Assembly: GCA_965217895.1 (NCBI GenBank)
Contig: CBDCJV010000002.1
Coordinates: 736,001 to 800,000 of the forward strand
Direction of reading: 5' to 3'
Origin: Waterburya sp.
GTDB taxonomy: Bacteria; Cyanobacteriota; Cyanobacteriia; Cyanobacteriales; Xenococcaceae
DNA length: 64,000 nucleotides
Part shown: piece after piece, positions 13,615 to 26,523 of the stretch
How the letters are laid out: each line of letters begins with the position of its first letter
Numbering within the stretch: position 1 is the first letter of the stretch
Program-made: the position numbers and the translations under genes
The notes under the pieces: generated by a model
Seen by the model: the letters and a program-made list of their open reading frames with translations, nothing else
Databases searched by the model: none
What the model was told of the DNA's origin: nothing

Positions 13615-14895
13615 ATGAAAAAGCACTACTCCGTAATAGTTGTGGGTGGTGGTCAAGCTGGTCTTTCAATCAGTTATTGTTTGAAGCAAAAAGGCATCGA
13701 CCACATTGTATTTGAAAAGAATCAGATTGGTTATTCTTGGCAACAAAAACGCTGGGATACATTCTGCCTGGTGACACCTAACTGGCAATGTACTCTCCCT
13801 GGTTATCATTATCCAGGTGACGATCCTGACGGTTTTATGGAAAGAGATGCGATCGTTGAATATGTAAAGGATTATGCCAAATTTTTCAACCCACCAATCA
13901 AAGAAGGAGTAGAAGTATTTTCAGTTAAGAAAAATAATTCTCAAGGGTTATTTGAACTAGCGACTTCTATTGACAACTATACGGCGGATCAGGTTGTTGT
14001 CGCCACAGGCAGCTATCATCAGGCGAAAGTGCCGAGAATGGCGGAAAGGTTTACGGGCGATGTAATGCAACTGCATTCTTCTGACTACAAAAACCCTGAG
14101 TTATTGCCAGAAGGAGAAGTATTAGTAATCGGTAGTGGGCAATCTGGTTGTCAGATAGCAGAAGACTTACACTTGGCAGGTAGAAAAACTCATCTTTGCG
14201 TTGGTGGCGCACCGCGATCGCCTCGTAAGTATCGGGGCAAAGATGTTGTAGATTGGTTAGACCGACTGGGATATTACGATCTGAGTATAGATAAACACGC
14301 CGATCCTGAAAGTGTAAGAAACAAAACTAACCATTATCTTACAGGTCGCGATGGTGGTCATGAAATAGACTTAAGACAGTTTGCTAAAGAGGGAATGCAG
14401 CTATATGGTTCACTCAAAGATATTCAGGGCGATCGCTTAGAATTTAAATCCAATCTAAAGCACAACCTGGATCGCGCTGATAATGTAGCCGAAAGTATTA
14501 AAAAGACTATCGATGAATACATCGTCAGAAAAGAAATAGATGCGCCTACCGAAGAGGCTTATAAGCCAGTTTGGCAACCAGAAGAAGTTGCGCAACTTGA
14601 CTATAAAAAAAGCAACATCACTTCTGTAATTTGGTGTATTGGCTATCAAACTAACTTTAACTGGATTAAAGTTCCTGTATTTGACGGGCTAGGCTATCCT
14701 AGCCACGATCGCGGTGTTACAAGTGCCAGGGGCTTATATTTCGTAGGTCTTCCTTGGCTGTATACCTGGGGTTCGGGAAGATTTTCAGGTATAGCCAGAG
14801 ATGCCGAATATCTGTCTGACTACATTGCCAACAGGATGAAATATGCCTATCCAGGTACATTGCTGGCTGTTAATGAAGCTGCGCTCGGCTCTTAA
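13615..14895 (+). CDS. MSMEG_0569 family flavin-dependent oxidoreductase (Nit1C NitH-like)
   Basis: GGGQAG and GSGQSG Rossmann motifs; RWDTFCLVTPNWQC; context. Confidence 0.85.
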   Translation: MKKHYSVIVVGGGQAGLSISYCLKQKGIDHIVFEKNQIGYSWQQKRWDTFCLVTPNWQCTLPGYHYPGDDPDGFMERDAIVEYVKDYAKFFNPPIKEGVEVFSVKKNNSQGLFELATSIDNYTADQVVVATGSYHQAKVPRMAERFTGDVMQLHSSDYKNPELLPEGEVLVIGSGQSGCQIAEDLHLAGRKTHLCVGGAPRSPRKYRGKDVVDWLDRLGYYDLSIDKHADPESVRNKTNHYLTGRDGGHEIDLRQFAKEGMQLYGSLKDIQGDRLEFKSNLKHNLDRADNVAESIKKTIDEYIVRKEIDAPTEEAYKPVWQPEEVAQLDYKKSNITSVIWCIGYQTNFNWIKVPVFDGLGYPSHDRGVTSARGLYFVGLPWLYTWGSGRFSGIARDAEYLSDYIANRMKYAYPGTLLAVNEAALGS

Positions 14896-14928
14896 CAATG
14901 AACAATGAACAATGAACAATGAACAATT
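14894..14928. repeat. Heptamer tandem repeat (AACAATG)x4 plus one variant, STRR-like
   Basis: Read directly from the sequence. Confidence 0.9.
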
Positions 14929-14939
14929 GTAGAACAATT

Positions 14940-14996
14940 GTAGGGTGGGCATGAAGATAAGTCTTGTATTCAAAAAGCAATTTTAAATTGCCCACC
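14940..14996. repeat. REP-like inverted repeat GTAGGGTGGGCA...TGCCCACC
   Basis: Same arms recur at 35338-35401 with a different spacer. Confidence 0.7.
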
Positions 14997-15044
14997 GCTA
15001 ACGATAAATAATGATTGATAAACTATTTAAAAGGAAAATAAATT

Positions 15045-15527
15045 ATGCCTGAAGTTACTACCCCCGCACACAAAGCTGGTGATTTCTTTGTCGATTACGA
15101 AGAAAAAGTATTTCCCGATATTAAAGCTGAACCAGGAGAAAAAGCATTAGTTACATTTCATACCGTGGCTTTTGAAGGTTCGATTGGTTTAGTAAATTTA
15201 TTACAGGCTACCCGCTTGATTCGCAAAGGTTTTGATACCTCGGTGTTGCTTTATGGTCCTGGGGTAACGTTAGGAATACAGCGAGGCTTTCCGAAGATTG
15301 GCGATGAATCTTTTCCTGGACATCAGGCGATGAACAACCAGCTAATCAAAATTATGGAAGAGGGTGCAAAAGTCTATGCCTGTCGTTTTGCACTGCAAGC
15401 ATTATATGGACATGGTGAACCCTCTCTAATTCCTGGAATTACCCCCATTAACCCTTTAGATGTACTGGATATAGTCTTGATGCACCGCAAAGAAGGCGCA
15501 TTTATCCTTGATACTTGGACAATGTAA
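15045..15527 (+). CDS. MSMEG_0572/Sll0783 family protein (Nit1C NitB, DsrE-like)
   Basis: DYEEKVFPD...[11 protein letters not shown]...[12 protein letters not shown]. Confidence 0.9.
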
Positions 15528-15626
15528 GTCGTAGCTAGTTTAGAACCTATCACTTAGAAGATAACTGTTTGTAAGTAGGAAGTAATAAGTTTAAACCTGC
15601 TGTCAATGTTCGATGGTAAATGATAA

Positions 15627-16655
15627 ATGATGAATGTAAAAGCAGCAGCAGTACAAATATCTCCTGTGCTTTATAGCCAAGAAGGAACTACAGAGAAAGT
15701 TTTAAAAGCGATCACCGATGCTGGCAAAGAAGGGGTGCAGTTAATTGTTTTCCCTGAAACCTTTATTCCCTACTACCCTTATTTCTCTTTTATACAGCCA
15801 CCCGTGTTGATGGGTAAGGAACACATGAGGCTATATGAGGAAGCGGTATCGATTCCTAGTCCTGTTACCGAAGCGGTTAGTAAAGCAGCTAAAGCTAACT
15901 CAATGGTAGTAGTTTTGGGAGTTAACGAACGGGACGGAGGTTCTCTATATAATACTCAGTTAATCTTTGATGCTGATGGTAGTTTATTACTCAAACGCCG
16001 TAAGATAACTCCTACCTACCACGAACGAATGATTTGGGGACAGGGAGACGGATCGGGATTACAGGTATTAGACACGGCTGTCGGTAAAGTGGGTGCTTTA
16101 GCCTGTTGGGAACACTATAATCCTCTAGCTAGATATAGTCTGATGGCACAGCAGGAACAAATACATTGCGCTCAATTTCCTGGTTCGATGGTGGGGCAAA
16201 TCTTTGCCGATCAAACCGAGGTGACGATTAAACATCATGCTTTAGAGGCTGGTTGTTTTGTGGTTAATTCGACTGGCTGGCTAAGTCCCGAACAAGTTGT
16301 TGAAATATGTCCCGATGAGAATCTGCGACGGGTTTTAACTGGTGGCTGCTACACCACTATCATTTCTCCCGAAGGTGTTTGCCTGTGTGAACCCATAACA
16401 GAAGGAGAAGGCATGGCGATCGCCGATTTGGATTTCTCTTTAATTACTAAACGCAAGCGGATGATGGACTCAGTGGGACACTATTCCCGTCCCGATCTAT
16501 TGCAGCTTCAGGTGAATCAAGATGCTCGTAATGTTTGGCAACAAACACCCACAGATTATGCGATCGCCTCAGAAAATGAACTAGCTATTAATGGCAAATT
16601 ACCAACTCCAGAATTACCAAAAATTAACGAACCAAAACCTATAACTAATAATTAA
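15627..16655 (+). CDS. Nit6803-family nitrilase (Nit1C NitC)
   Basis: Catalytic triad in [29 protein letters not shown]. Confidence 0.92.
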
Positions 16656-16689
16656 CAATTCTACGCGCCTTAATCGTGCCGCGATCGCC

Positions 16690-17802
16690 ATGACAAATGA
16701 GCAAAAACGCAAATTAATTACAGATCTACAGTCCCAAGGATTAAAACTAGCTGAAAACATTACAGGTGCAGCAGGAAGAAAAGGTGGTGCAGGTCCATCA
16801 GATCACAAAGCTGTAACAATAGACGGCACAACGGTCATGATACCCGTTTACACTAGTGTTGCTGCTAAATCTAACTATACACTTGCAGATTTTCACAAAC
16901 AGTCGCTCAACTATAAGAAATCTTATGTTTTAGAAAAGAATGAAGAGGGTATTGCATCGATCCAATTTCCCAACCAGCCCAAATTTTATAGCCTCAAAAC
17001 TGCCGAAGGGATACCCTACAGTCACATTGCTTTATTGCATAGCCATAACGTCCTTGCCACAACAGTTTTACAAAGCTGCATCCGCTATAGTAACCGCAAT
17101 ACAGCCTGTCAATTTTGCGCCATCGAACAATCTCTAGCAGCAGAAAAAACGATCGCCCAAAAAACTCCCGAACAATTAGCAGAAGTGGCAGCAGCAGCAG
17201 TTGAGCTTGACGGTATAGAACAGTTAGTAATGACTACAGGCACACCCAATACGACAGATCGAGGGGCAGCCTATTTAATTGAATGCGCCAAAGCAGTCAA
17301 AGCGAGAGTCAATTTACCTATTCAGGCACAGTGCGAACCTCCCGATGATTTTATTTGGTTTAAACGAATGAAAGCCTGGGGAATAGATAGTTTGGGAATG
17401 CACCTCGAAGTAATTGAACCAGAAGTGCGCGATCGCATTATGCCAGGCAAAGCCAAAGTATCTCTAGATTATTACTTTCAAGCATTTGAGGCAGCAGCAA
17501 AAGTCTTTGGTTGGGGACAGGTAAGCACTTACATTTTGGCAGGTTTAGGAGACAGCTTAGAAAGCATCACCGATACTTGCGATCGCTTAATAAAGCTAGG
17601 AGTTTATCCCTTTGTTGTTCCCTTTATTCCCGTTACTGGAACACCATTAGCCAACCATCAACCCCCCAGCAGCGAATTTATGTATGCAATCTATGAACAG
17701 GTAGGGGCAATGTTAAATCATGCAGGTATGTCCTCCCAAGATATTAAAGCTGGCTGTGCCAAGTGTGGTGCTTGTTCTGCACTTTCTACCTTTGAACATT
17801 AA
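16690..17802 (+). CDS. MSMEG_0568 family radical SAM protein (NitD)
   Basis: GRKGGAGPSDHK; C-x9-C-x2-C (CIRYSNRNTACQFC); C-terminal CAKCGACS. Confidence 0.9.
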   Translation: MTNEQKRKLITDLQSQGLKLAENITGAAGRKGGAGPSDHKAVTIDGTTVMIPVYTSVAAKSNYTLADFHKQSLNYKKSYVLEKNEEGIASIQFPNQPKFYSLKTAEGIPYSHIALLHSHNVLATTVLQSCIRYSNRNTACQFCAIEQSLAAEKTIAQKTPEQLAEVAAAAVELDGIEQLVMTTGTPNTTDRGAAYLIECAKAVKARVNLPIQAQCEPPDDFIWFKRMKAWGIDSLGMHLEVIEPEVRDRIMPGKAKVSLDYYFQAFEAAAKVFGWGQVSTYILAGLGDSLESITDTCDRLIKLGVYPFVVPFIPVTGTPLANHQPPSSEFMYAIYEQVGAMLNHAGMSSQDIKAGCAKCGACSALSTFEH

Positions 17803-17847
17803 GCGCATTGAACATTGCATCAAATAATTAACAACAACTAACGACGA

Positions 17848-18354
17848 ATGACTAAATACCAATTTAAACTAGCTTTATCACCAGCCCATATAGAAGCTTA
17901 CTTTCTACTAAGACAACAAATTTTCTGTCAAGAACAAGGTATCTTTCAAATGAGCGATCGCGATAACTATGACTCAATCGCTTATCCTATTGTTGCCATC
18001 AATAATGATAACAAGGTTGTCGGAGTTGTCAGGATCTATGAAACCGAACCTGGACTTTGGTACGGTGGCAGACTTGGGGTACATCCAGATTATCGACGAG
18101 GGTGGAAGATTGGCAAAGAATTAATCAATAAAGCGGTAACTACGGCTAATGCTTGGGGCTGCGATCGCTTTTTAGCCACAGTTCAATTAACTAACGTGCG
18201 CTTTTTTCAAAGATTACACTGGAACTCAGTTGAAGAAATTTCTATTTGCGATCAACCCCATCATCTAATGGAAGCTGAACTAGCTTTTTATCCCCCCACG
18301 AATCAAACTCGTCCTAGTTTACCAATGCAGCTACAGCAATTATCCGTTAGCTGA
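17848..18354 (+). CDS. MSMEG_0567/Sll0786 family GNAT acetyltransferase (NitE)
   Basis: LRQQIFCQEQ, WYGGRLGV, FLATVQ..NVRFF. Confidence 0.85.
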   Translation: MTKYQFKLALSPAHIEAYFLLRQQIFCQEQGIFQMSDRDNYDSIAYPIVAINNDNKVVGVVRIYETEPGLWYGGRLGVHPDYRRGWKIGKELINKAVTTANAWGCDRFLATVQLTNVRFFQRLHWNSVEEISICDQPHHLMEAELAFYPPTNQTRPSLPMQLQQLSVS

Positions 18355-18377: not shown

Positions 18378-18689
18378 CTAACTAATAAAAATTTCAATTG
18401 AACTCAAAAGGTTTGGAAGCTTATTTTGAACTACATCCCAAACGACATCAAGATCAATTTGATCGTATTTATGTACAATTATTTCTCGCCACCTAATTTC
18501 TGGATGACTTTGACGAAACGACTCAGATAATCTTTTAGTTGCCTCGCCAATAATTGTAATTTGATAAAGGATTGCCGAAATTTTTTCATCGTTAGCTTCT
18601 AGCTCTAAAAAGCTGATGCCATCTGAGTAATGTAAAATACGTTTAATAGCATTAACTATATTAATCAGAGATTCTTTGTCACGCAGCAT
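18378..18689 (-). pseudogene. HepT/DUF86 HEPN ribonuclease toxin lacking the Arg of its RX4H motif
   Basis: IIGEATKRLS...HPEIRWREIIVHKYD; the usual xGMRD/N segment before xxxHxY is missing. Confidence 0.65.
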
Positions 18690-18993
18690 AAATAACTCGT
18701 GCAGAGTCTATAATATTGTCTTTTCTAAGCCAATTATCGCTGCGCTCGATCGCTGCTTTAACAATCAAGTCCACCTTTCTATCAAAAATAGCCTCAAGCT
18801 CATCTTGCATTTGTATAGTTTCAGTTAGCCCTCTTTTTGTGTTGGCATCGAAGCTTACCAATACGTCAATATCGCTGGAGACATTGAAATCGTCACGCAA
18901 AACAGAGCCAAATAGAGCAAATTCAATAATCTGCCATTAATGGCAAAATTTTTTGATTTTATCTAAAGGTATGTCGATATTTTGAAACTCCAT
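18679..18993 (-). pseudogene. MNT nucleotidyltransferase antitoxin with an internal stop
   Basis: From ATG 18993 it reads MEFQNIDIPLDKIKKFCH*WQIIEFALFGSVLRDDF...SDIDVLV; in-frame TAA at 18937-18939. Confidence 0.85.
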
Positions 18994-19065
18994 AGACAAC
19001 CAAATTCTTAAACCTCAGCTTAGTATTATAGGCGATCAAAAGACCGCTTAAGAGCCGATTGTATC

Positions 19066-19230
19066 TAGGGCGTGTCATCAATTAAAAAAAAGAGCTTTTT
19101 TTGGTATTTTAACGACCTACTGCGTCGAAAAATAACCTCCGTAGCCCTGCTATGCAGAACATTTTTCTTCTTGTATCTCGCTAAAATACGCTGCAAAAGC
19201 ATTCTTCCCCTCAATTGATGACACGCCCTA
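19066..19230. mobile_element. MITE (165 bp) with perfect 18-bp terminal inverted repeats
   Basis: TAGGGCGTGTCATCAATT at 19066-19083 and AATTGATGACACGCCCTA at 19213-19230; no ORF inside. Confidence 0.85.
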
Positions 19231-19577
19231 AGCAAATAATATAAATTATGTCGCGAACAAAACCAAAAATTGAGGAATTTATAAGTAGATACTTTAAATG
19301 AGGAAGAAATTTTAGTAACATTACTATCTTTGCAGAGCCAAACAGCAAAAAACTATAATCTAACTAACCCTAACGCCACCAAAGTGATTTTTTCAGCTTT
19401 AACTTAAAAATAGCGATCGCGAAGAGAAATTCATAACTTATGATGTAAGTTGGCAGGCTTATAAGTCATCAGTCAATACTTGCATTGTTTAGTATTTTTA
19501 TAATTTGGCAATCAGCAATTAGGCGTAGATAGTTTAAAAAATCGCTTAATCGCTCTTTTTTGCTGTAATTACCAAAT

Positions 19578-19605
19578 GTAATGTAGATTACGTAAAAATA
19601 ACTAC
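19578..19605 (+). promoter_or_regulatory. Two adjacent perfect NtcA boxes upstream of the cynS-urease operon
   Basis: GTAATGTAGATTAC (19578-19591) directly followed by GTAAAAATAACTAC (19592-19605). Confidence 0.65.
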
Positions 19606-19658
19606 AAACTTAAAATTTAAAAAACGCTTTAATGACTTAACAGCAAAATGTCAGCATG

Positions 19659-19747
19659 GCGATTGCAAGACAGCGCGGTCTTGAGGTTTCCTCAAGTGGA
19701 GCGACTGTCGAGGGTGGGTAAGCTGGCTAAACGCCAGCACCCTTCGC
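19659..19747. repeat. Nested hairpin repeat inserted into a split HIP1 site
   Basis: GCGA[81 nt]TCGC with stems CTTGAGG/CCTCAAG, GCTGGC/GCCAGC, AGGGTG/CACCCT. Confidence 0.6.
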
Positions 19748-19919
19748 CATCAATTACAGATATGGTAATTTCCTCAAGCACAAAAGCTATAGATAAGTGA
19801 GGTAATGTGTTAGCTCCCAACGAGGAAATCTGAGTGAATTAGATTTGATTTATATGATGTGTGGTGTGTTCACATGACTACGGATCGCTGGAAATTTATG
19901 GCGGAGGAGGAATTAAATT

Positions 19920-20366
19920 ATGAAAGTATTTCCCGAAATCACTGAAAAATTATTAGCAGCTAAAAAAGAAAAAGGAATTACCTTTGAGGATCTAGAAAAG
20001 GCAGTCGGACGAGATGAAACTTGGATCGCTTCGGTTATCTATCGTCAAGCCAGTGCAGATATGGACGAAGCTACAAAAATAGTTACCACTTTAGGTTTAC
20101 CAGAATCAATGGCTGAACCTCTTACAGTTGCACCCCTAAAGGGTTCTCTTGAGCCTCAAATACCTACCGACCCATTAATTTATCGTTTTTACGAAATTAT
20201 GCAGGTATACGGAATGCCAATCAAAGCCGTAGTCCATGAAAAATTTGGGGATGGCATCATGAGTGCAATTGATTTTTCAGTTGAAGTAGAGAAAGTAGAA
20301 GATCCAAAAGGCGATCGCGTACAGATAGTAATGTGTGGTAAATTTTTACCTTATAAGAAATGGTAG
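19920..20366 (+). CDS. cynS: Cyanase (cyanate hydratase)
   Basis: [31 protein letters not shown]. Confidence 0.95.
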
Positions 20367-20370
20367 ATTT

Positions 20371-20673
20371 ATGTATCTAACACCAAAAGAAATGGAGCGG
20401 TTAACGATATTTACCGCTGCCGAAATTGCCCGTCGTCGCAAAGCCAAAGGGATTAAATTAAATGTCCCCGAAGCGATCGCCTATATTACCGATGCGCTGG
20501 TAGAAGGGGCGAGGGAAGATAAAACTGTAGCTCAATTAATGAGCGAGGGTGCAGAATTACTGACAATGGATGATGTCTTACCAGGAGTAACAGAATTGAT
20601 TCCCTTAATTCAAGTAGAGGCACATTTTCTTGATGGCACGAAGTTAATTAGTGTTCATAATCCGATTAGATAG
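20371..20673 (+). CDS. ureA: Urease gamma subunit (start moved to ATG 20371)
   Basis: [11 protein letters not shown]...GIKLNVPEA...[19 protein letters not shown]. Confidence 0.9.
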
Positions 20674-20700
20674 CCCTAGTTCTAGTAGTAAGTAAGATAA

Positions 20701-20719
20701 GGGCGAACGGTCGTTCGCC
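20701..20719. repeat. REP-like palindrome
   Basis: GGCGAAC-GGTC-GTTCGCC hairpin between ureA and ureB. Confidence 0.65.
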
Positions 20720-20731
20720 TGTACAAAAATT

Positions 20732-21097
20732 ATGATTCCAGGTGAAATATTTTTTGCAGAGGATGAGATTGAAATTAATGCAGGTAGAGAGAAGAAAACG
20801 ATCGCGGTAGATAATACAGGCGATCGTCCGATTCAAGTCGGTTCTCATTTTCACTTTTTTGAAGTCAATCGAGCATTAGCATTTGATCGCCCTGCTGCGT
20901 TTGGTTTTCGTTTGGATATTCCTTCTGGAACGGCAGTACGTTTTGAACCTGGAGATACTAAAGAAATTATTTTAGTTGCCCTTGGAGGAAACAGGCGAGT
21001 TATCGGACTTAATAATTTAACCAACGGTGCATTAGATAATTCAGAAATTGAAGCTGTTGCGATCGCTAATGCCCAACAATTAGGTTTTTATCAATAA
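20732..21097 (+). CDS. ureB: Urease beta subunit
   Basis: [39 protein letters not shown]. Confidence 0.93.
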
Positions 21098-21099
21098 CT

Positions 21100-21127
21100 G
21101 TAGGGGCGATTTGCGAATCGCCCCTAC
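21100..21127. repeat. REP-like GTAG palindrome
   Basis: GTAGGGGCGATT-TGCG-AATCGCCCCTAC. Confidence 0.75.
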
Positions 21128-21150
21128 GACTACTAACAATTAACCACAAC

Positions 21151-22857
21151 ATGAGAATCAACCGCGAACGATATGGAGAATTATTTGGTGCGACCAAAGG
21201 CGATCGCCTGCGTCTGGGAGATACTTCAATAATTATTGAAATTGAAGCGGATACAGGAGTTTACGGGGATGAATGTGTTTTTGGTGGCGGAAAAACGCTA
21301 CGGGATGGTTTGGGTTTAGCACCAGGAGTTACGGCATCTCAAGGCGCATTAGATTTGGTTTTAACCAATGTTATCGTCATGGATGCGGTGTTGGGCATTA
21401 TTAAAACCGATCTGGGCATCAAAGATGGCAAAATAGTGGGTATTGGTAAGGCTGGTAATCCAGATATTATGGACGGGGTAACACCCAATCTAATTGTTAG
21501 TGCCAATACAGATGTACGCTCGGCTGAAGGCTTGATTGCTACGGCTGGTGGAATTGATGGTCACGTTCATTTTGATAGTGCTGGGTTGTGCGCTGAAGCT
21601 CTTTCTAGCGGTATTACTACCATGATTGGTGGTGGTTTAGGCCCTGTTACCGTGGGGATTTGTTCGGGTGGGGCGCGGAATTTAGGAATTATGCTGCAAG
21701 CCACAGAAAGCTTTCCGATTAATTTTGGTTTCCTGGGTAAAGGTAGCTCTAGTTTACCTGCCAGTTTAATAGAACAGATCGAAGGTGGGGCAATCGGCTT
21801 AAAGATTCACGAAGATTGGGGGGCGATGCCTGCTGCCATTGATACTTGTCTGAGGGTGGCAGATGAATACGATTTTCAAGTACAGCTACACAGCGATACT
21901 CTTAACGAATCGGGATATGTGGAAGATACCTTAGATGCGATCGCAGGTCGTACCATTCATATGTACCATACGGAAGGGGCTGGGGGCGGTCATGCACCAG
22001 ATATTATTAAAGTGGCTTCTTATCCTCACTGTTTGCCCTCTTCTACCAACCCGACTAATCCCTATACGATAAATACTTTTGACGAGCATTTAGATATGGT
22101 GATGGTCTGTCATCATCTCAATCCTAGAGTACCCGAAGATATTGCTTTTGCCGACTCGCGTATTCGAGCCGAAACCATTGCTGCTGAAGATATTTTGCAC
22201 GATATGGGAGCAATTTCCATGATGGGTTCGGATAGTCAGGGAATGGGGCGCATTGCCGAAACAATCTGTCGTACATGGCAACTGGCTTCTAAAATGAAAG
22301 ACCAGCGAGGAGTATTACCAGGAGATAGCGATCGCCATGATAATCAAAGAGCTTTACGCTATTTAGCTAAATATACAATTAACCCCGCCCGCACCTACGG
22401 CATAGATCGCTATGTAGGTTCATTAGAACCAGGAAAAATTGCCGATATAGTGCTGTGGCAACCTGGATTCTTTGGTATTAAGCCCGAATTGATTATAAAA
22501 GGTGGTTTTATTACTTGGTCGCCCATGGGAGAGTCGAATGCTTCTTTAATGACCTGCGAACCAATTATTTATCGACCACAGTGGAGTAGTTTTGGTATTG
22601 CACCTCAAGCTACTTCCTTTAGTTTTATGACCCAAGCAGCCATAGATAAAGGCATCCCTAATAAATTAGGTTTGCAAAAACCAGCTTTAGCTGTAACAGG
22701 TACTCGTTCTTTATCTAAGTCTGACCTAATACACAATAATATTTGTCCTCAGATTAAAGTCGATCCTGATACATTTCAGGTCAAAGTTGACGGCGAACTA
22801 GCAATCTGCGAACCAGTCGATCGCGTTCCTTTGGGAAGATTATATATGTTTCGTTAA
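21151..22857 (+). CDS. ureC: Urease alpha subunit, divergent paralog
   Basis: [39 protein letters not shown] and SDSQ retained; substrate-pocket loops altered. Confidence 0.9.
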
Positions 22858-22966
22858 TCGTGTCTGGTGTTGAAATTCGTAAGAATCGCTACTCCTATAG
22901 TTAAAACTTCATGATAATGTTAAGTCCAATTATTGTTAAAGAATGCAGTAGGGCAAAATATTTCTT

Positions 22967-23797
22967 ATGGAACGTACATTTGTTGGTACTCTCAAAACCT
23001 TATGGCGTTATCCAGTTAAATCGATGCAGGGGGAAGAATTAGACAAGTCAGATATCGACATAAAAGGATTATTGGGCGATCGCACTCATGCCCTTTGGGA
23101 CGTAGAAACTAAGCGCGTTGCCAGTGCCAAAAATCCGCGAAAATGGTCGTCTTTACTTAACTGTCATGCCACCTTTGAGCAAACACCCCAGGTAGATAAA
23201 CTTATACCTACCGTACATATTTCTCTCCCTGATGGTTCTACTATTACCAGCAAGCAAGCTGATATTAATACCCAGCTATCTAACTGGATTAAGCGAGAAG
23301 TAAAGTTTCTGACTACTGCCCCTGAAACACCCAGTCTCGACCAATACTGGCCAGATGTCGAAGGCACAGCCTATCAAGATACGGTGACTCAGTTGTTTAT
23401 GCCGACTGAAACTTTTTTCGATTCCTGCCCGATTCACGCGATTACTACTGCTACTCTTAATCGTCTACAACAACTTTATCCAGATGGAGAATTTGCTATC
23501 TGTCGCTTTCGCCCTAACTTACTGATTGATACCTTATCAACTCAAGCTGATTTTGTCGAAAATGATTGGGTTGGTCATATTCTAGCGATCGGCGATTCTG
23601 TTAGGCTTAAGATTGATACAGCCTGTCCTCGATGTGTCGTAACCACTTTGGCACAAGAGGGATTGCCTCAAGATTTAAATATTTTGAAAACTACTGCTAA
23701 GTATAACGATGTTATTGCAGGAATAAGATTGTCAGTCATTCAAGGAGGCACTATTCATCAAGGAGATTCTATCTGGTTGTTAGAAATTAAAGTTTAG
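22967..23797 (+). CDS. MOSC domain protein (YcbX/mARC-like)
   Basis: LWRYPVKSMQGE, GDR, RFRPNLL, CPRC motifs. Confidence 0.88.
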   Translation: MERTFVGTLKTLWRYPVKSMQGEELDKSDIDIKGLLGDRTHALWDVETKRVASAKNPRKWSSLLNCHATFEQTPQVDKLIPTVHISLPDGSTITSKQADINTQLSNWIKREVKFLTTAPETPSLDQYWPDVEGTAYQDTVTQLFMPTETFFDSCPIHAITTATLNRLQQLYPDGEFAICRFRPNLLIDTLSTQADFVENDWVGHILAIGDSVRLKIDTACPRCVVTTLAQEGLPQDLNILKTTAKYNDVIAGIRLSVIQGGTIHQGDSIWLLEIKV

Positions 23798-23860
23798 GAT
23801 AGTTGTTCAACTGATTGACTATCATGGCTTTTAGAGTTGGCTAACTTATGGCAGTAATTT

Positions 23861-24931
23861 TTAAACTCTTTTAACCTGCTCTCTTTCTACCGCTTCAAAC
23901 AAGGCTTTAAAATTGCCTTGACCAAAACCTTTTGCTTCTTGTCTACGTTCAATAAATTCAAGAAAAAAAGTTGGCTGCTCAAAAATGGGCTGAGTAAAAA
24001 TCTGCATCAGTAAAGATTCTACAACAGGCTGATATTCTAACTCCCCTCGATCGCCATCGACTAAAATTTGCAGATCGGCGATCGCTTGCCACTCTTGAAT
24101 GCTTAACCGTGATTTATGCTTTAGCAGACGGTAATAGGACTGGGGTACGGTTAAAAAATTAAGATGAGGCTGCATCAAAGCCACGTCGGCAATCAAGTTT
24201 TGCGATCGCAATGCTAGATGTTGAATACCCGATCCACCATTAAGATTGATAAATTCTTGAATTTGAGAATTGGCTGTCGTTGGTTGATTAATATTAAACT
24301 GCACTTCACCGCTATCATTGATTAAAGCCTGACTGGTTAATCCTGATTTTTCGGTGTGAATATTAAAACTCTGCTGTATTTTAAATCCAAATAAAGACTG
24401 ATATAACTTGACAGCAGAGTCTAATTTACCCACAGCAACATTGAGAACAACGTGATCGATATGAGTAATATTTGTCTGGAAATCAGCCTTGAGCGAATAT
24501 GGCTCAATATCTATATCTGGTAAGCAATAATCAAATTTATCTGAAGTCCCTTCAATTAAAGTATGTTGGAGAGAATTCCAGCCAGTAATTTTGGCAGCTT
24601 TAAATTTCCCTGGTAACGATCGGTAAGTTTGAGGATGCTGTAATATTTTTACTCCTAAATACTTACCCTGACTAATAACTGATTTAATATCATCTATTCT
24701 AAAGGCAATATCCACTATCCCCGAAGGATGAAGCTCAAGATACTTGGCAACTGGACTAGTATTGCTTAAGGGCGAAGAAATTACCAAAAAAGCCGAATTT
24801 AAGGCAATTACCTCAGTCTGGGTGTGTTTATTAATACTTCTGCCGATCGCTTGAAAGCCGACATTGTGGATAAACCAGTCTCTTGTTCTTGCTGCATTCC
24901 TGGTATAGAAATGAACATGATCGATCTTCAT
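23861..24931 (-). CDS. hppD: 4-hydroxyphenylpyruvate dioxygenase (start moved to ATG 24931)
   Basis: MKIDHVHFY, IDHVVLNV, GIQHLAL, FFLEFIERR, GFGQGNFKALFEA. Confidence 0.92.
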   Translation of the reverse strand: MKIDHVHFYTRNAARTRDWFIHNVGFQAIGRSINKHTQTEVIALNSAFLVISSPLSNTSPVAKYLELHPSGIVDIAFRIDDIKSVISQGKYLGVKILQHPQTYRSLPGKFKAAKITGWNSLQHTLIEGTSDKFDYCLPDIDIEPYSLKADFQTNITHIDHVVLNVAVGKLDSAVKLYQSLFGFKIQQSFNIHTEKSGLTSQALINDSGEVQFNINQPTTANSQIQEFINLNGGSGIQHLALRSQNLIADVALMQPHLNFLTVPQSYYRLLKHKSRLSIQEWQAIADLQILVDGDRGELEYQPVVESLLMQIFTQPIFEQPTFFLEFIERRQEAKGFGQGNFKALFEAVEREQVKRV

Positions 24932-24963
24932 AAAGTTATTACTGTCGTAACTGTTGAGCCTAT

Positions 24964-25821
24964 CTATTTCGTAGCACAAATCAACCCAAAACGAATCAAT
25001 CCCCTGGCATAGCCGCGACTCATCAGATTTAAAGATAATGCTCCTTGGATTGTTTGCCAACCTGCTTGGAATAAACCCATGATTGCCTGGGGTGTAATAG
25101 CTGAGTCGATTACTACATCCCAGAAAGGCGACACCGCCATCGACCAATCATCTGATTTAAGCTCATTAAAACCACATTCAGTTGCGATCGCCCGATACTC
25201 GGACAAAGAGATCACATAAGGTAGGCAATATACGCGATAAATTTCTTTGAGATGAGCAATTTCATTAACAGTTAAATTCCCAGCTAAAGAATCAGTTTCT
25301 CGATGACACCAGGTAGCTAAAATTATTTTTCCGCCTGGCTTTAAGACGCGATAACATTCTGCCAAGAATTTGGTTTTATCGGGCATATGTTCCCCGCTTT
25401 CTAATGACCACACCAAATCAAAAGTATTGTCCTCAAAAGGCATCTCTAAAGCGTTCGCTACTTCAAACCTAACGCGATCGTCTAAATCTGCTTCTACTGC
25501 CCTTTCCCTGGCTCTAAATGCTTGCACAGGAGATAAAGTAATGCCTGTAGCCTTACTGCCAAACTTTTGGGCTAAATATAAGGTACTGCCACCAATACCG
25601 CAGCCGACATCAATTATTTTCTTGGGCGCATTATTTTCAGCATAACCAGCCCAAATTAACAATTCTTCAATTAATTCTATTTGCGCCTGACGGCGATCTA
25701 ATCTGTAGTTACCATTCTTGCCATAGTAACCGTGGTGCATATGTTCACCCCAAACTTCCTCCCATATTCCGCTAGAGGCATCATAAAACTCTCTGATATT
25801 TTGATATAAGTTGTTACTCAT
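24964..25821 (-). CDS. Gamma-tocopherol methyltransferase-like SAM methyltransferase
   Basis: WGEHMHHGYY, DVGCGIGGS, WSLESGEHMPDK; adjacent to hppD. Confidence 0.85.
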   Translation of the reverse strand: MSNNLYQNIREFYDASSGIWEEVWGEHMHHGYYGKNGNYRLDRRQAQIELIEELLIWAGYAENNAPKKIIDVGCGIGGSTLYLAQKFGSKATGITLSPVQAFRARERAVEADLDDRVRFEVANALEMPFEDNTFDLVWSLESGEHMPDKTKFLAECYRVLKPGGKIILATWCHRETDSLAGNLTVNEIAHLKEIYRVYCLPYVISLSEYRAIATECGFNELKSDDWSMAVSPFWDVVIDSAITPQAIMGLFQAGWQTIQGALSLNLMSRGYARGLIRFGLICATK

Positions 25822-25925: not shown

Positions 25926-26273
25926 TTAATTAGAAAAGCGAACATTGTTTTCCGTAACGACAACAAACCCATCAAATATTCTTTGAGGGTAAAGTACAAA
26001 TAAACGCTGTAAAACGTTAATTTTATTTGTAGAACGTTCGTCTTGAAGACGCATCAGAATTATGCCTTTATGAGGTAGTTTTTCTCGATAAACTTTTTCG
26101 CCAAAATCTTTATCATTGGTAATCAAAATCCAACCTTCATCAAAAGCTTTCTTGATAATTGCATCATCTGTAATGCCTCTAGCTTCTTCATAAACTGAAA
26201 GTACTTCGTTTCCTTCTTCTTTTAACCAGCCAGCTACTTTAATACCCGTACATTCATCTACTAAAAAACGCAT
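25926..26273 (-). CDS. DUF5615 PIN-like toxin
   Basis: MRFLVDEC...ILITNDKDFGE; paired with DUF433. Confidence 0.8.
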   Translation of the reverse strand: MRFLVDECTGIKVAGWLKEEGNEVLSVYEEARGITDDAIIKKAFDEGWILITNDKDFGEKVYREKLPHKGIILMRLQDERSTNKINVLQRLFVLYPQRIFDGFVVVTENNVRFSN

Positions 26274-26283
26274 CTTGTAAACT

Positions 26284-26523
26284 TTATGCCATTAATGGCA
26301 TAAAAGTTGTACTTTCAAGAGACTGAGAAGCAAAGAGTAAACAAGCTCTGATATCTGCTTCGACTATATCCTCATACTCTTCTATAATCTCTGCTGTTGT
26401 TGCGCCATGAGCTAGAAGATTAAGAATATATTCTACCGTTAGGCGCGTACCTTTAATGACTGGTTTTCCAACCATTACTTTGGGATTGCTAGTGATCCTA
26501 CTCAAAAGTTGGCGATCGCTCAT
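26284..26523 (-). CDS. DUF433 antitoxin
   Basis: PKVMVGKPVIKGTRLTVE motif. Confidence 0.88.
   Translation of the reverse strand: MSDRQLLSRITSNPKVMVGKPVIKGTRLTVEYILNLLAHGATTAEIIEEYEDIVEADIRACLLFASQSLESTTFMPLMA

Follow-up and report, generated by a model that had tools for sequence, protein, structure and literature searches.

A second urease of a distinct lineage next to a cyanase gene and a mARC-like MOSC gene in a Waterburya genome

We analysed a stretch of 64,000 nucleotides (the window; G000:C2:736001-800000) from the genome of the cyanobacterium Waterburya sp. (GCA_965217895.1), in which a cyanase gene, three urease structural genes and a MOSC domain gene follow one another. The urease genes, here named ureA2, ureB2 and ureC2, appear to encode a functional second urease (urease 2) of a distinct and widespread lineage, which we call clade 2. 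Our preferred reading, to which we assign a probability of about 60%, is that urease 2 is a functional nickel enzyme that likely acts on urea, is matured in trans and lies in a nitrogen-scavenging neighbourhood together with a separate transcription unit for the mARC-like MOSC protein. A preliminary description of the same DNA had proposed a nitrogen-scavenging module with a second urease-fold enzyme, possibly a joint pathway of the cyanase, the urease and the MOSC protein for a substituted urea such as hydroxyurea. The observation itself is confirmed and the interpretation as a second urease is right, but the three-gene pathway as a conserved unit is not supported: the cyanase gene cynS is a bystander of an insertion, and the MOSC gene a plausible, only partly linked partner.

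The five genes are intact and co-oriented, and open reading frame (ORF) and domain calls bear out the order first described. The cyanase gene cynS (19920-20366, plus strand) matches the Pfam domains Cyanate_lyase and CYNS_N and the NCBIfam equivalog TIGR00673 with 210.9 bits (cut-off 113.3). Its stop codon TAG (20364-20366) is followed, after 4 nt, by the ATG of ureA2 (20371-20673, plus), which encodes the urease gamma subunit (Pfam Urease_gamma, 1-99 of 99). The beta subunit gene ureB2 (20732-21097, plus; Pfam Urease_beta) and the gene for the catalytic alpha subunit, ureC2 (21151-22857, plus; Urease_alpha and Amidohydro_1; NCBIfam equivalog TIGR01792 with 843.4 bits, cut-off 680), come next, and the row closes with the MOSC gene (22967-23797, plus; Pfam MOSC_N and MOSC; 276 amino acids). 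The best NCBIfam match of UreA2 is the fused gamma/beta model NF009671, and UreB2 carries a C-terminal extension of about 20 residues. The closest named matches come from Pleurocapsales-type cyanobacteria (Myxosarcina, Xenococcus and Pleurocapsa). Comparison with relatives shows strong purifying selection on each of the five genes, with ratios of nonsynonymous to synonymous substitution rates (dN/dS) between 0.008 and 0.16 (cynS, 0.008-0.034; ureB2, 0.09-0.16; ureC2, 0.03-0.05, with dS up to 3; MOSC, 0.11-0.14).

UreC2 is 58% identical to the other UreC of its own genome and is closer to proteins from outside the cyanobacteria than to this paralogue. Relatives with 66-70% identity are found in Methylobacterium/Methylorubrum, Bosea, Pseudomonas syringae, Stutzerimonas, Methylophilus and Burkholderiales, and further in Thermoleophilia/Gaiellales, one Mycolicibacterium and one thaumarchaeal metagenome-assembled genome; those with 79-84% identity belong to Leptolyngbya-like cyanobacteria, Pseudanabaena, Chlorogloea, Phormidesmis and other cyanobacteria. 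A tree of 109 UreC sequences, whose canonical side consists of cyanobacterial sequences only, sets 87 clade-2 rows apart from 22 canonical cyanobacterial rows with 100% support, which places the window enzyme outside the canonical cyanobacterial ureases, as a second urease of the kind proposed should be placed. The 17 cyanobacterial clade-2 rows form a single group (99% support).

The solved structures closest to UreC2 are those of canonical ureases, with the best score of 696 bits to the Klebsiella aerogenes enzyme, and the canonical paralogue of the same genome scores higher than any of them (740 bits). Urease 2 has the three-subunit architecture of these canonical nickel ureases (K. aerogenes, PDB IDs 1EJW and 2KAU; Sporosarcina pasteurii, PDB ID 4CEU) at about 58-60% identity. 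All six metal ligands are kept in UreC2 (H138, H140, K218, H247, H273 and D361, aligning to K. aerogenes H134, H136, K217, H246, H272 and D360), as are the catalytic, substrate-binding and flap residues H220, D222, C320, H321 and R337, whose equivalents in S. pasteurii numbering are His222, Asp224, Cys322-His323 and Arg339 (roles in PMC7433671). Two residues that are alanine in canonical ureases differ throughout clade 2, namely V168, which follows a three-residue deletion, and G364. In S. pasteurii the corresponding residues are Ala170 and Ala366, and it is their main-chain carbonyl groups that hold the urea nitrogen bound to Ni(2) (PMC7433671); these contacts run via backbone atoms, and valine and glycine occupy the two sites in the whole clade.

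Clade 2 can be recognized by the motif HVHFDS after the first histidine pair and by a loop GP(V/I)TVGI, which is three residues shorter than the canonical GPATGTNATTCTPG. UreC2 carries both and groups with the clade in the tree; the stretch after its HxH reads HFDSAGL, in contrast to H(F/W)ICPQQ in canonical ureases. Comparison of 87 clade-2 rows with 27 canonical rows, both cyanobacterial and thaumarchaeal, yields 21 clade-discriminating columns, each with 93% conservation or more in both groups.

Window-type UreC is found in 8 of the 25 genomes of the genus (the source genome included) and in 1 of 16 genomes of other families. A second type, 56-62% identical to UreC2, is present in every matching genome among the 40 relatives; as it is 81-93% identical to the other UreC of the source genome, it represents the canonical cyanobacterial enzyme. 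Two genus genomes encode UreC2 with in-frame insertions in a surface loop near residue 393 (G003, locus L041, 593 residues; G019, locus L039, 585 residues). Duplicated ureABC genes have been counted before in seven cyanobacteria, including Xenococcus PCC 7305 (Veaudor et al. 2019, PMC6737895), and the part of that study dealing with the copies counts them without phylogeny, context or function and asks whether they differ biochemically. These duplicates are probably the same genes as urease 2, and the UreC and MOSC matches named Xenococcus PCC 7305 show 91% and 75% identity.

The gene neighbourhoods of clade 2 were compared by clustering all ORFs of 90 clade-2 loci, the cyanobacterial ones included. 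Outside the cyanobacteria the order is ureE-ureF-ureAB (fused)-ureC-ureG-ureD, and such clusters in Methylobacterium, P. syringae, Stutzerimonas, Methylophilus and Thermoleophilia share the UreC clade and its motifs with the window at 66-70% identity. A ureEFABCGD cluster is also described as the second urease cluster, of unclear regulation, in Mycobacterium smegmatis (PMC4222082). The cyanobacterial members differ in having separate ureA and ureB genes and the order ureABC-GDEF; outside the genus this reads ureA-ureB-ureC-ureG-ureD-ureE-ureF, with at least one accessory gene directly downstream at 11 of 11 loci and all four at 7 of them. In the window, the two small subunits are encoded by separate genes, and so they are at the other mapped cyanobacterial loci with the exception of L052, for which no separate ureB ORF was called. 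Across the 89 loci with ureC, accessory genes are frequent (UreG at 74, UreD at 72, UreF at 68 and UreE at 56). Other neighbours among the 90 loci are Urt/FmdD-type binding proteins (38), CN-hydrolases of the amidase/formamidase type (18), AmiR/ANTAR genes (14), arginase-family genes (8) and FmdA (4), and at many non-genus cyanobacterial loci a CN-hydrolase gene and a divergently oriented Urt-like ABC transporter come before the urease genes. Since nickel chaperones, urea/amide importers and urea-producing ureohydrolases are the neighbours, urea would be the most probable substrate. Urease 2 probably differs from the canonical enzyme in regulation or kinetics.

Ammonia-oxidising archaea grow on urea, and the thaumarchaeal clade-2 locus (L119) was considered as archaeal support for urea activity. 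We set it aside: the locus is exceptional in its phylum, where 10 of 80 other genomes hold a UreC, merely 57-60% identical to that of L119.

Two side observations concern genes near clade-2 ureases. A CbbQ/NorQ-type AAA+ gene and a gene for a protein of about 757 residues without Pfam hit adjoin ureD at 12-13 of the 70 non-cyanobacterial loci, mostly downstream of it and in a few cases on the opposite strand (L059, L060, L067, L074, L082, L085, L092, L097, L099, L103, L116 and others), and may form an additional pair for metallocentre assembly. A nitrile hydratase beta gene lies near urease 2 at L041, L042 and L053.

In line with the preliminary description, neither ureD, ureE, ureF or ureG nor a urea transporter is present in the window (Pfam UreD/UreF and tblastn), and all genome copies map outside it. 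The same holds for the other loci of the genus, with accessory genes at 0 of 10, so that, compared with the ureEFABCGD clusters, the genus has lost the accessory-gene linkage. The accessory genes of the source genome lie in its canonical urease cluster (L005, G000:C2:4639578-4646200), which has the order UT-ureA-ureB-ureG-ureD-ureE-ureF-ureC, starts with a UT-type urea transporter fused to a tail with an EF-hand pair and is followed by a ZnuABC-like transporter. UreD and UreF have one Pfam match each in the genome, both at C2:4.64 Mb, and tblastn finds UreE once and UreG once, besides a 31% identical paralogue. This single UreG-D-E-F set (C2:4.641-4.644 Mb) is wedged between ureB1 and ureC1. 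The UT-type transporter and the single Urt/Fmd-type ABC transporter were likewise located outside the window by tblastn, and FmdA together with a Urt-like transporter, as well as an amidase, is encoded in other parts of the genome.

Although it sits in the canonical operon, the single accessory set is of clade-2 descent, judging from protein identities and a UreF tree. Its UreG shares 75-83% identity with the UreG proteins from cyanobacterial clade-2 clusters versus 56-60% with canonical-linked UreG, and its UreF shows 48-56% identity to cyanobacterial clade-2-cluster UreF versus 22-28% to UreF from canonical clusters. In the UreF tree, five genus proteins join seven cyanobacterial clade-2-linked ones (94/98), and the canonical references, three proteins only, form a separate branch (100/100). 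UreF of clade-2 type is present in 24 of 24 genus relatives, with or without ureABC2, and a genome of another family (G025) has both UreF types. An ancestor may have gained an entire clade-2 cluster and lost the canonical chaperones, after which the clade-2 chaperones would serve both ureases. With an accessory set of clade-2 type, cognate maturation factors for urease 2 are present in trans, and urease 2 is most likely matured by this single set.

The linkage of cynS to urease 2, which had been taken as part of the proposed unit, does not hold up as a conserved feature. Of the genus loci, 5 of 10 have cynS next to ureABC2, compared with 0 of the 81 other clade-2 loci (0/11 cyanobacterial, 0/70 non-cyanobacterial). 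It is a single-copy gene that 20 of 24 genus relatives possess, and its usual place is the end of an operon HK-cynA-cynB-cynD-cynS (L147-L150). In genome G019 this arrangement continues directly into the urease genes as cynABDS-ureA2B2C2-MOSC; a remnant of cynD is retained at L035, and cynABD is lost in the window, L036 and L037. The junction of 4 nt is found in the window and at L035 only; at L036, L037 and L039, about 133 nt separate the two genes and ureA2 starts with GTG. In G021, the row consists of a divergent Urt-like ABC transporter, FmdA, ureA2B2C2 and MOSC, and cynS sits elsewhere. Restricted to half of the genus loci and derived from the cynABDS arrangement, the link is read here as a local insertion history downstream of a resident cynABDS operon and not as a conserved operon. 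In a sub-lineage of the genus, ureABC2 directly follows the resident cynS and has no accessory genes beside it.

In NtcA-activated promoters, a -10 element TAN3T lies about 22 nt downstream of a GTAN8TAC box. The NtcA-type boxes mentioned in the preliminary description are present, two in tandem upstream of cynS (19578-19591 and 19592-19605, plus strand, 315-342 nt 5' of the gene) and one upstream of the MOSC gene (22879-22892); for the box and its position in such promoters, see PMC3898017. Over the whole window, GTAN8TAC occurs at chance level (11 found, 10.2 expected), so that these boxes gain meaning only through position and conservation. At cynS, a possible -10 element TAAAAT (19611-19616) lies only 19 nt past box 1, with 22 nt being the canonical spacing. 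Two tandem boxes are also borne by the leaders of L036 and L037, in identical form; as these are close relatives, this conservation says little. The leader of the source genome additionally contains a GC-rich insert of about 100 nt (19651-19750, plus), which is unique to this genome, where it is single copy, and missing from L036 and L037, whose leaders are otherwise collinear. It is predicted to form stable hairpins, and the whole leader folds with z = -3.6. A scan of 18700-24100 against Rfam gave no riboswitch or other match in the cynS leader, the insert included.

The MOSC protein aligns to human mARC1 (PDB ID 6FW2) over both domains. Its C223, in the motif ACPRC, aligns with the cysteine of ACSRC in mARC1 and is invariant in 15 orthologues. 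The conserved cysteine of mARC-type proteins is the molybdenum ligand. We thus predict a molybdenum-cofactor N-reductase, sharing the MOSC_N and MOSC domains and the cysteine motif with the mARC/YcbX enzymes. Pfam finds only the two MOSC domains and no 2Fe-2S domain of the YcbX type, which distinguishes the protein from YcbX, and unlike mARC it has no membrane anchor; a further difference from both is its NtcA-type promoter and its linkage to urea/amide genes in cyanobacteria. The mARC-type assignment of the preliminary description is therefore sustained by the alignment to mARC1; the dedicated hydroxyurea route built on it is not, as no sequence feature identifies hydroxyurea.

Upstream of the MOSC gene, the box GTAAGAATCGCTAC (22879-22892) is followed after 22 nt by TAATGT, giving a canonical NtcA-type promoter at 22879-22920 on the plus strand. 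Box, spacing and -10 element are kept at 5 of 5 loci where MOSC adjoins ureC2 and also in G003 and G010, where the MOSC gene is unlinked. Of five stand-alone orthologues from outside the genus with at least 64% identity, four have the promoter as well, 65-89 nt ahead of the ATG; it is missing where MOSC is an internal operon gene. This pattern suggests that the MOSC gene is a separate unit with an NtcA-type promoter, predicted to be under NtcA control. Among the papers listed by a literature search on MOSC, NtcA and cyanobacteria, none contained the term 'MOSC domain'.

Adjacency of MOSC and urease 2, as had been proposed, is only partial: it is seen at 5 of 10 genus loci, and elsewhere the gene adjoins ureABC2 at 1 of 11 other cyanobacterial loci and at 1 of 70 remaining loci, the latter being an alphaproteobacterial clade-2 locus with a 34% identical homologue 6 kb upstream. 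At L052/L157, MOSC is divergent to ureA2. Co-occurrence in the genome is more frequent. An orthologue with at least 74% identity is present in 7 of 8 genus ureC2 carriers and in 0 of 17 genus non-carriers, and orthologues with 47-72% identity in 8 of 10 other cyanobacterial carriers (G025 and G234 being without one); in all, MOSC is found in 15 of 20 clade-2 carriers versus 5 of 398 sampled non-carriers. The gene is also found with other nitrogen genes. At L141 and L160, ureC1B1A1 (divergent), FmdA, five Urt-like genes (UrtABCDE-like), MOSC and then ureG and ureF follow one another, and at L142 it comes after a NarB-like gene and Urt-like genes. We suggest that the mARC-like reductase is functionally tied to urea/amide uptake as a separate NtcA-driven unit and that its probable role is to turn small amides or ureas carrying an N-hydroxyl group, or else hydroxylamine, by reduction into forms that urease or amidases can use or that are no longer inhibitory to them.

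Several observations weigh against the reading of urease 2 as a urea-hydrolysing enzyme with MOSC as a tied but separate partner. No assay of any clade-2 member, or of a urease homologue with a new substrate, was found in the literature searched. Among the other cyanobacterial carriers of clade 2, 5 of 5 also have a canonical urease, as do 7 of 10 carriers from outside the cyanobacteria (in the remaining 3 of 10, clade 2 is the only urease), and 13 of the 21 discriminating columns adjoin ligands or substrate-binding residues, both alanine sites included, a pattern that fits altered specificity equally well as a kinetic variant. The boxes of the cynS promoter show non-canonical spacing. Concerning MOSC, the related genomes do not count as independent cases, which inflates the co-occurrence figures and makes them suggestive rather than statistical; in a phylum sample of 400 genomes, 5 hold MOSC and 2 hold clade 2 without overlap, both being too rare for a phylum-wide test of co-occurrence. 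No urea/amide gene adjoins MOSC at 8 of 13 non-genus loci, one of which (L145) lies beside an ammonium transporter and seven of which (L143, L144, L159 and L161-L164) have no nitrogen genes nearby. Relatives of MOSC with 43-68% identity were located at 80 metagenomic loci, of which 33 span 6 kb or more; urea/amide genes are found at only one of the 80, a Pseudanabaena-type operon (L173).

A dedicated pathway for an N-substituted urea, for example N-hydroxyurea, would have MOSC remove the N-OH group or reduce hydroxylamine, an adapted urease 2 act on the substrate and cyanase clear the released cyanate. The clade-wide exchanges of alanine to valine (with the three-residue deletion) and alanine to glycine do lie right in the amide pocket on the Ni(2) side, most carriers keep a canonical urease, MOSC accompanies 15 of the 20 clade-2 carriers, and the solved structure nearest to the MOSC protein is that of mARC1, an enzyme able to reduce N-hydroxyurea to urea (PMC11513889). 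The gene order points the other way, as cynS owes its place to insertion after cynABDS at half of the genus loci and MOSC is rarely adjacent outside them (1/11 and, at 34% identity, 1/70); moreover, MOSC is found beside canonical urease and Urt genes in a genome without clade 2 (L141), and the Urt-like transporters and arginase-family genes around clade 2 point to urea. We therefore regard this three-gene pathway as doubtful. A variant that leaves out cynS deserves slightly more attention, though it too is unlikely: clade-2 enzymes could be a sister lineage with a Ni(2)-side pocket remodelled for an N-substituted or urea-like compound (N-hydroxyurea or methylurea), to which cyanobacteria would have added an NtcA-induced mARC-like reductase for the N-OH group. 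An altered substrate would explain why most carriers keep clade 2 beside a canonical urease, and the pocket changes together with this habitual coexistence keep the idea of a substituted urea alive.

It is also rather improbable that the genes have no functional coupling, the region being a variable one that has collected nitrogen genes and the MOSC protein serving an unrelated detoxification, for example of N-hydroxylated base analogues as in YcbX/YiiM. The flanks vary among relatives, toxin-antitoxin genes bracket the locus, MOSC owns its promoter, and urea/amide genes are missing at 8 of 13 non-genus and 79 of 80 metagenomic MOSC loci; set against this, distant cyanobacteria share the NtcA-type MOSC promoter, Urt-like operons end with MOSC in three lineages, and the presence of MOSC in the genus follows that of ureC2 (7/8 versus 0/17). 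The lack of accessory genes at the genus loci recalls the iron urease UreA2B2 of Helicobacter mustelae, likewise a second urease without adjacent accessory genes, and this analogy has been raised for the cyanobacterial duplicates (Veaudor et al., PMC6737895). That urease 2 is such an accessory-independent, non-nickel enzyme for times of nickel scarcity is, however, very unlikely, since all other clade-2 clusters examined carry UreG/D/E/F and since the sole accessory set of the source genome, in contrast to H. mustelae, is a cognate set of clade-2 type. Decay of a redundant duplicate is the least credible explanation. Genome G010 does contain two broken ureC2 copies (L042 and L043), one beside an IS605-type TnpB gene, and 17 of the 25 genus genomes lack ureC2, but the window copy is intact, retains every catalytic residue and evolves at a dN/dS of 0.03-0.05 over dS up to 3.

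The surroundings of the five genes support the nitrogen-scavenging setting that had been proposed for the locus. Upstream, a row of genes on the plus strand (13615-18354) encodes an FMO-like flavin monooxygenase, a 160-residue protein without Pfam hit, a nitrilase, a radical SAM protein and a GNAT protein, which we take to resemble the Nit1C nitrilase cluster. A HepT/MNT toxin-antitoxin pair (18378-18900, minus strand) separates this cluster from cynS. Nitrilase cluster, cyanase, urease 2 and MOSC may together form a neighbourhood for scavenging organic nitrogen under the control of NtcA. Directly downstream of MOSC, a glyoxalase/dioxygenase-fold gene, presumably 4-hydroxyphenylpyruvate dioxygenase-like, and a methyltransferase gene with overlapping ends lie on the minus strand (23861-25821), and a PIN-like/DUF433 toxin-antitoxin pair (25926-26523) is found beyond them.

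The spacers between the urease genes contain GC-rich palindromes, a short one between ureA2 and ureB2 (20702-20719) and one with a 12-bp stem between ureB2 and ureC2 (21100-21127). They belong to a family GGSGA-N-TCSCC with about 308 copies in the genome, roughly 10 times as many as in a shuffle, and look like a family of repetitive extragenic palindromic (REP)-like elements. The sole match above the gathering score in the Rfam scan was 5_ureB_sRNA, antisense within ureC2 (21298-21598, minus strand; 41.3 bits, gathering score 40); it was rejected, as it most likely reflects the coding similarity to Helicobacter ureB and not a small RNA.

Few metalloenzymes have been studied as thoroughly as urease, and still one entire lineage seems never to have been assayed. 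Clade 2 spans cyanobacteria, methylotrophs, pseudomonads and actinobacteria, usually occurs beside a canonical urease and deviates at precisely those two positions whose backbone keeps the amide nitrogen of the substrate on Ni(2). Should urease 2 be a plain urease, it would be an example of a genome that runs two ureases with a single, borrowed chaperone set for nickel; should it be something else, a novel source of nitrogen would be opened to primary producers. The MOSC gene with its NtcA-type promoter, found with urea/amide uptake genes, furthermore offers a testable lead to a role of bacterial mARC-like proteins in nitrogen assimilation.

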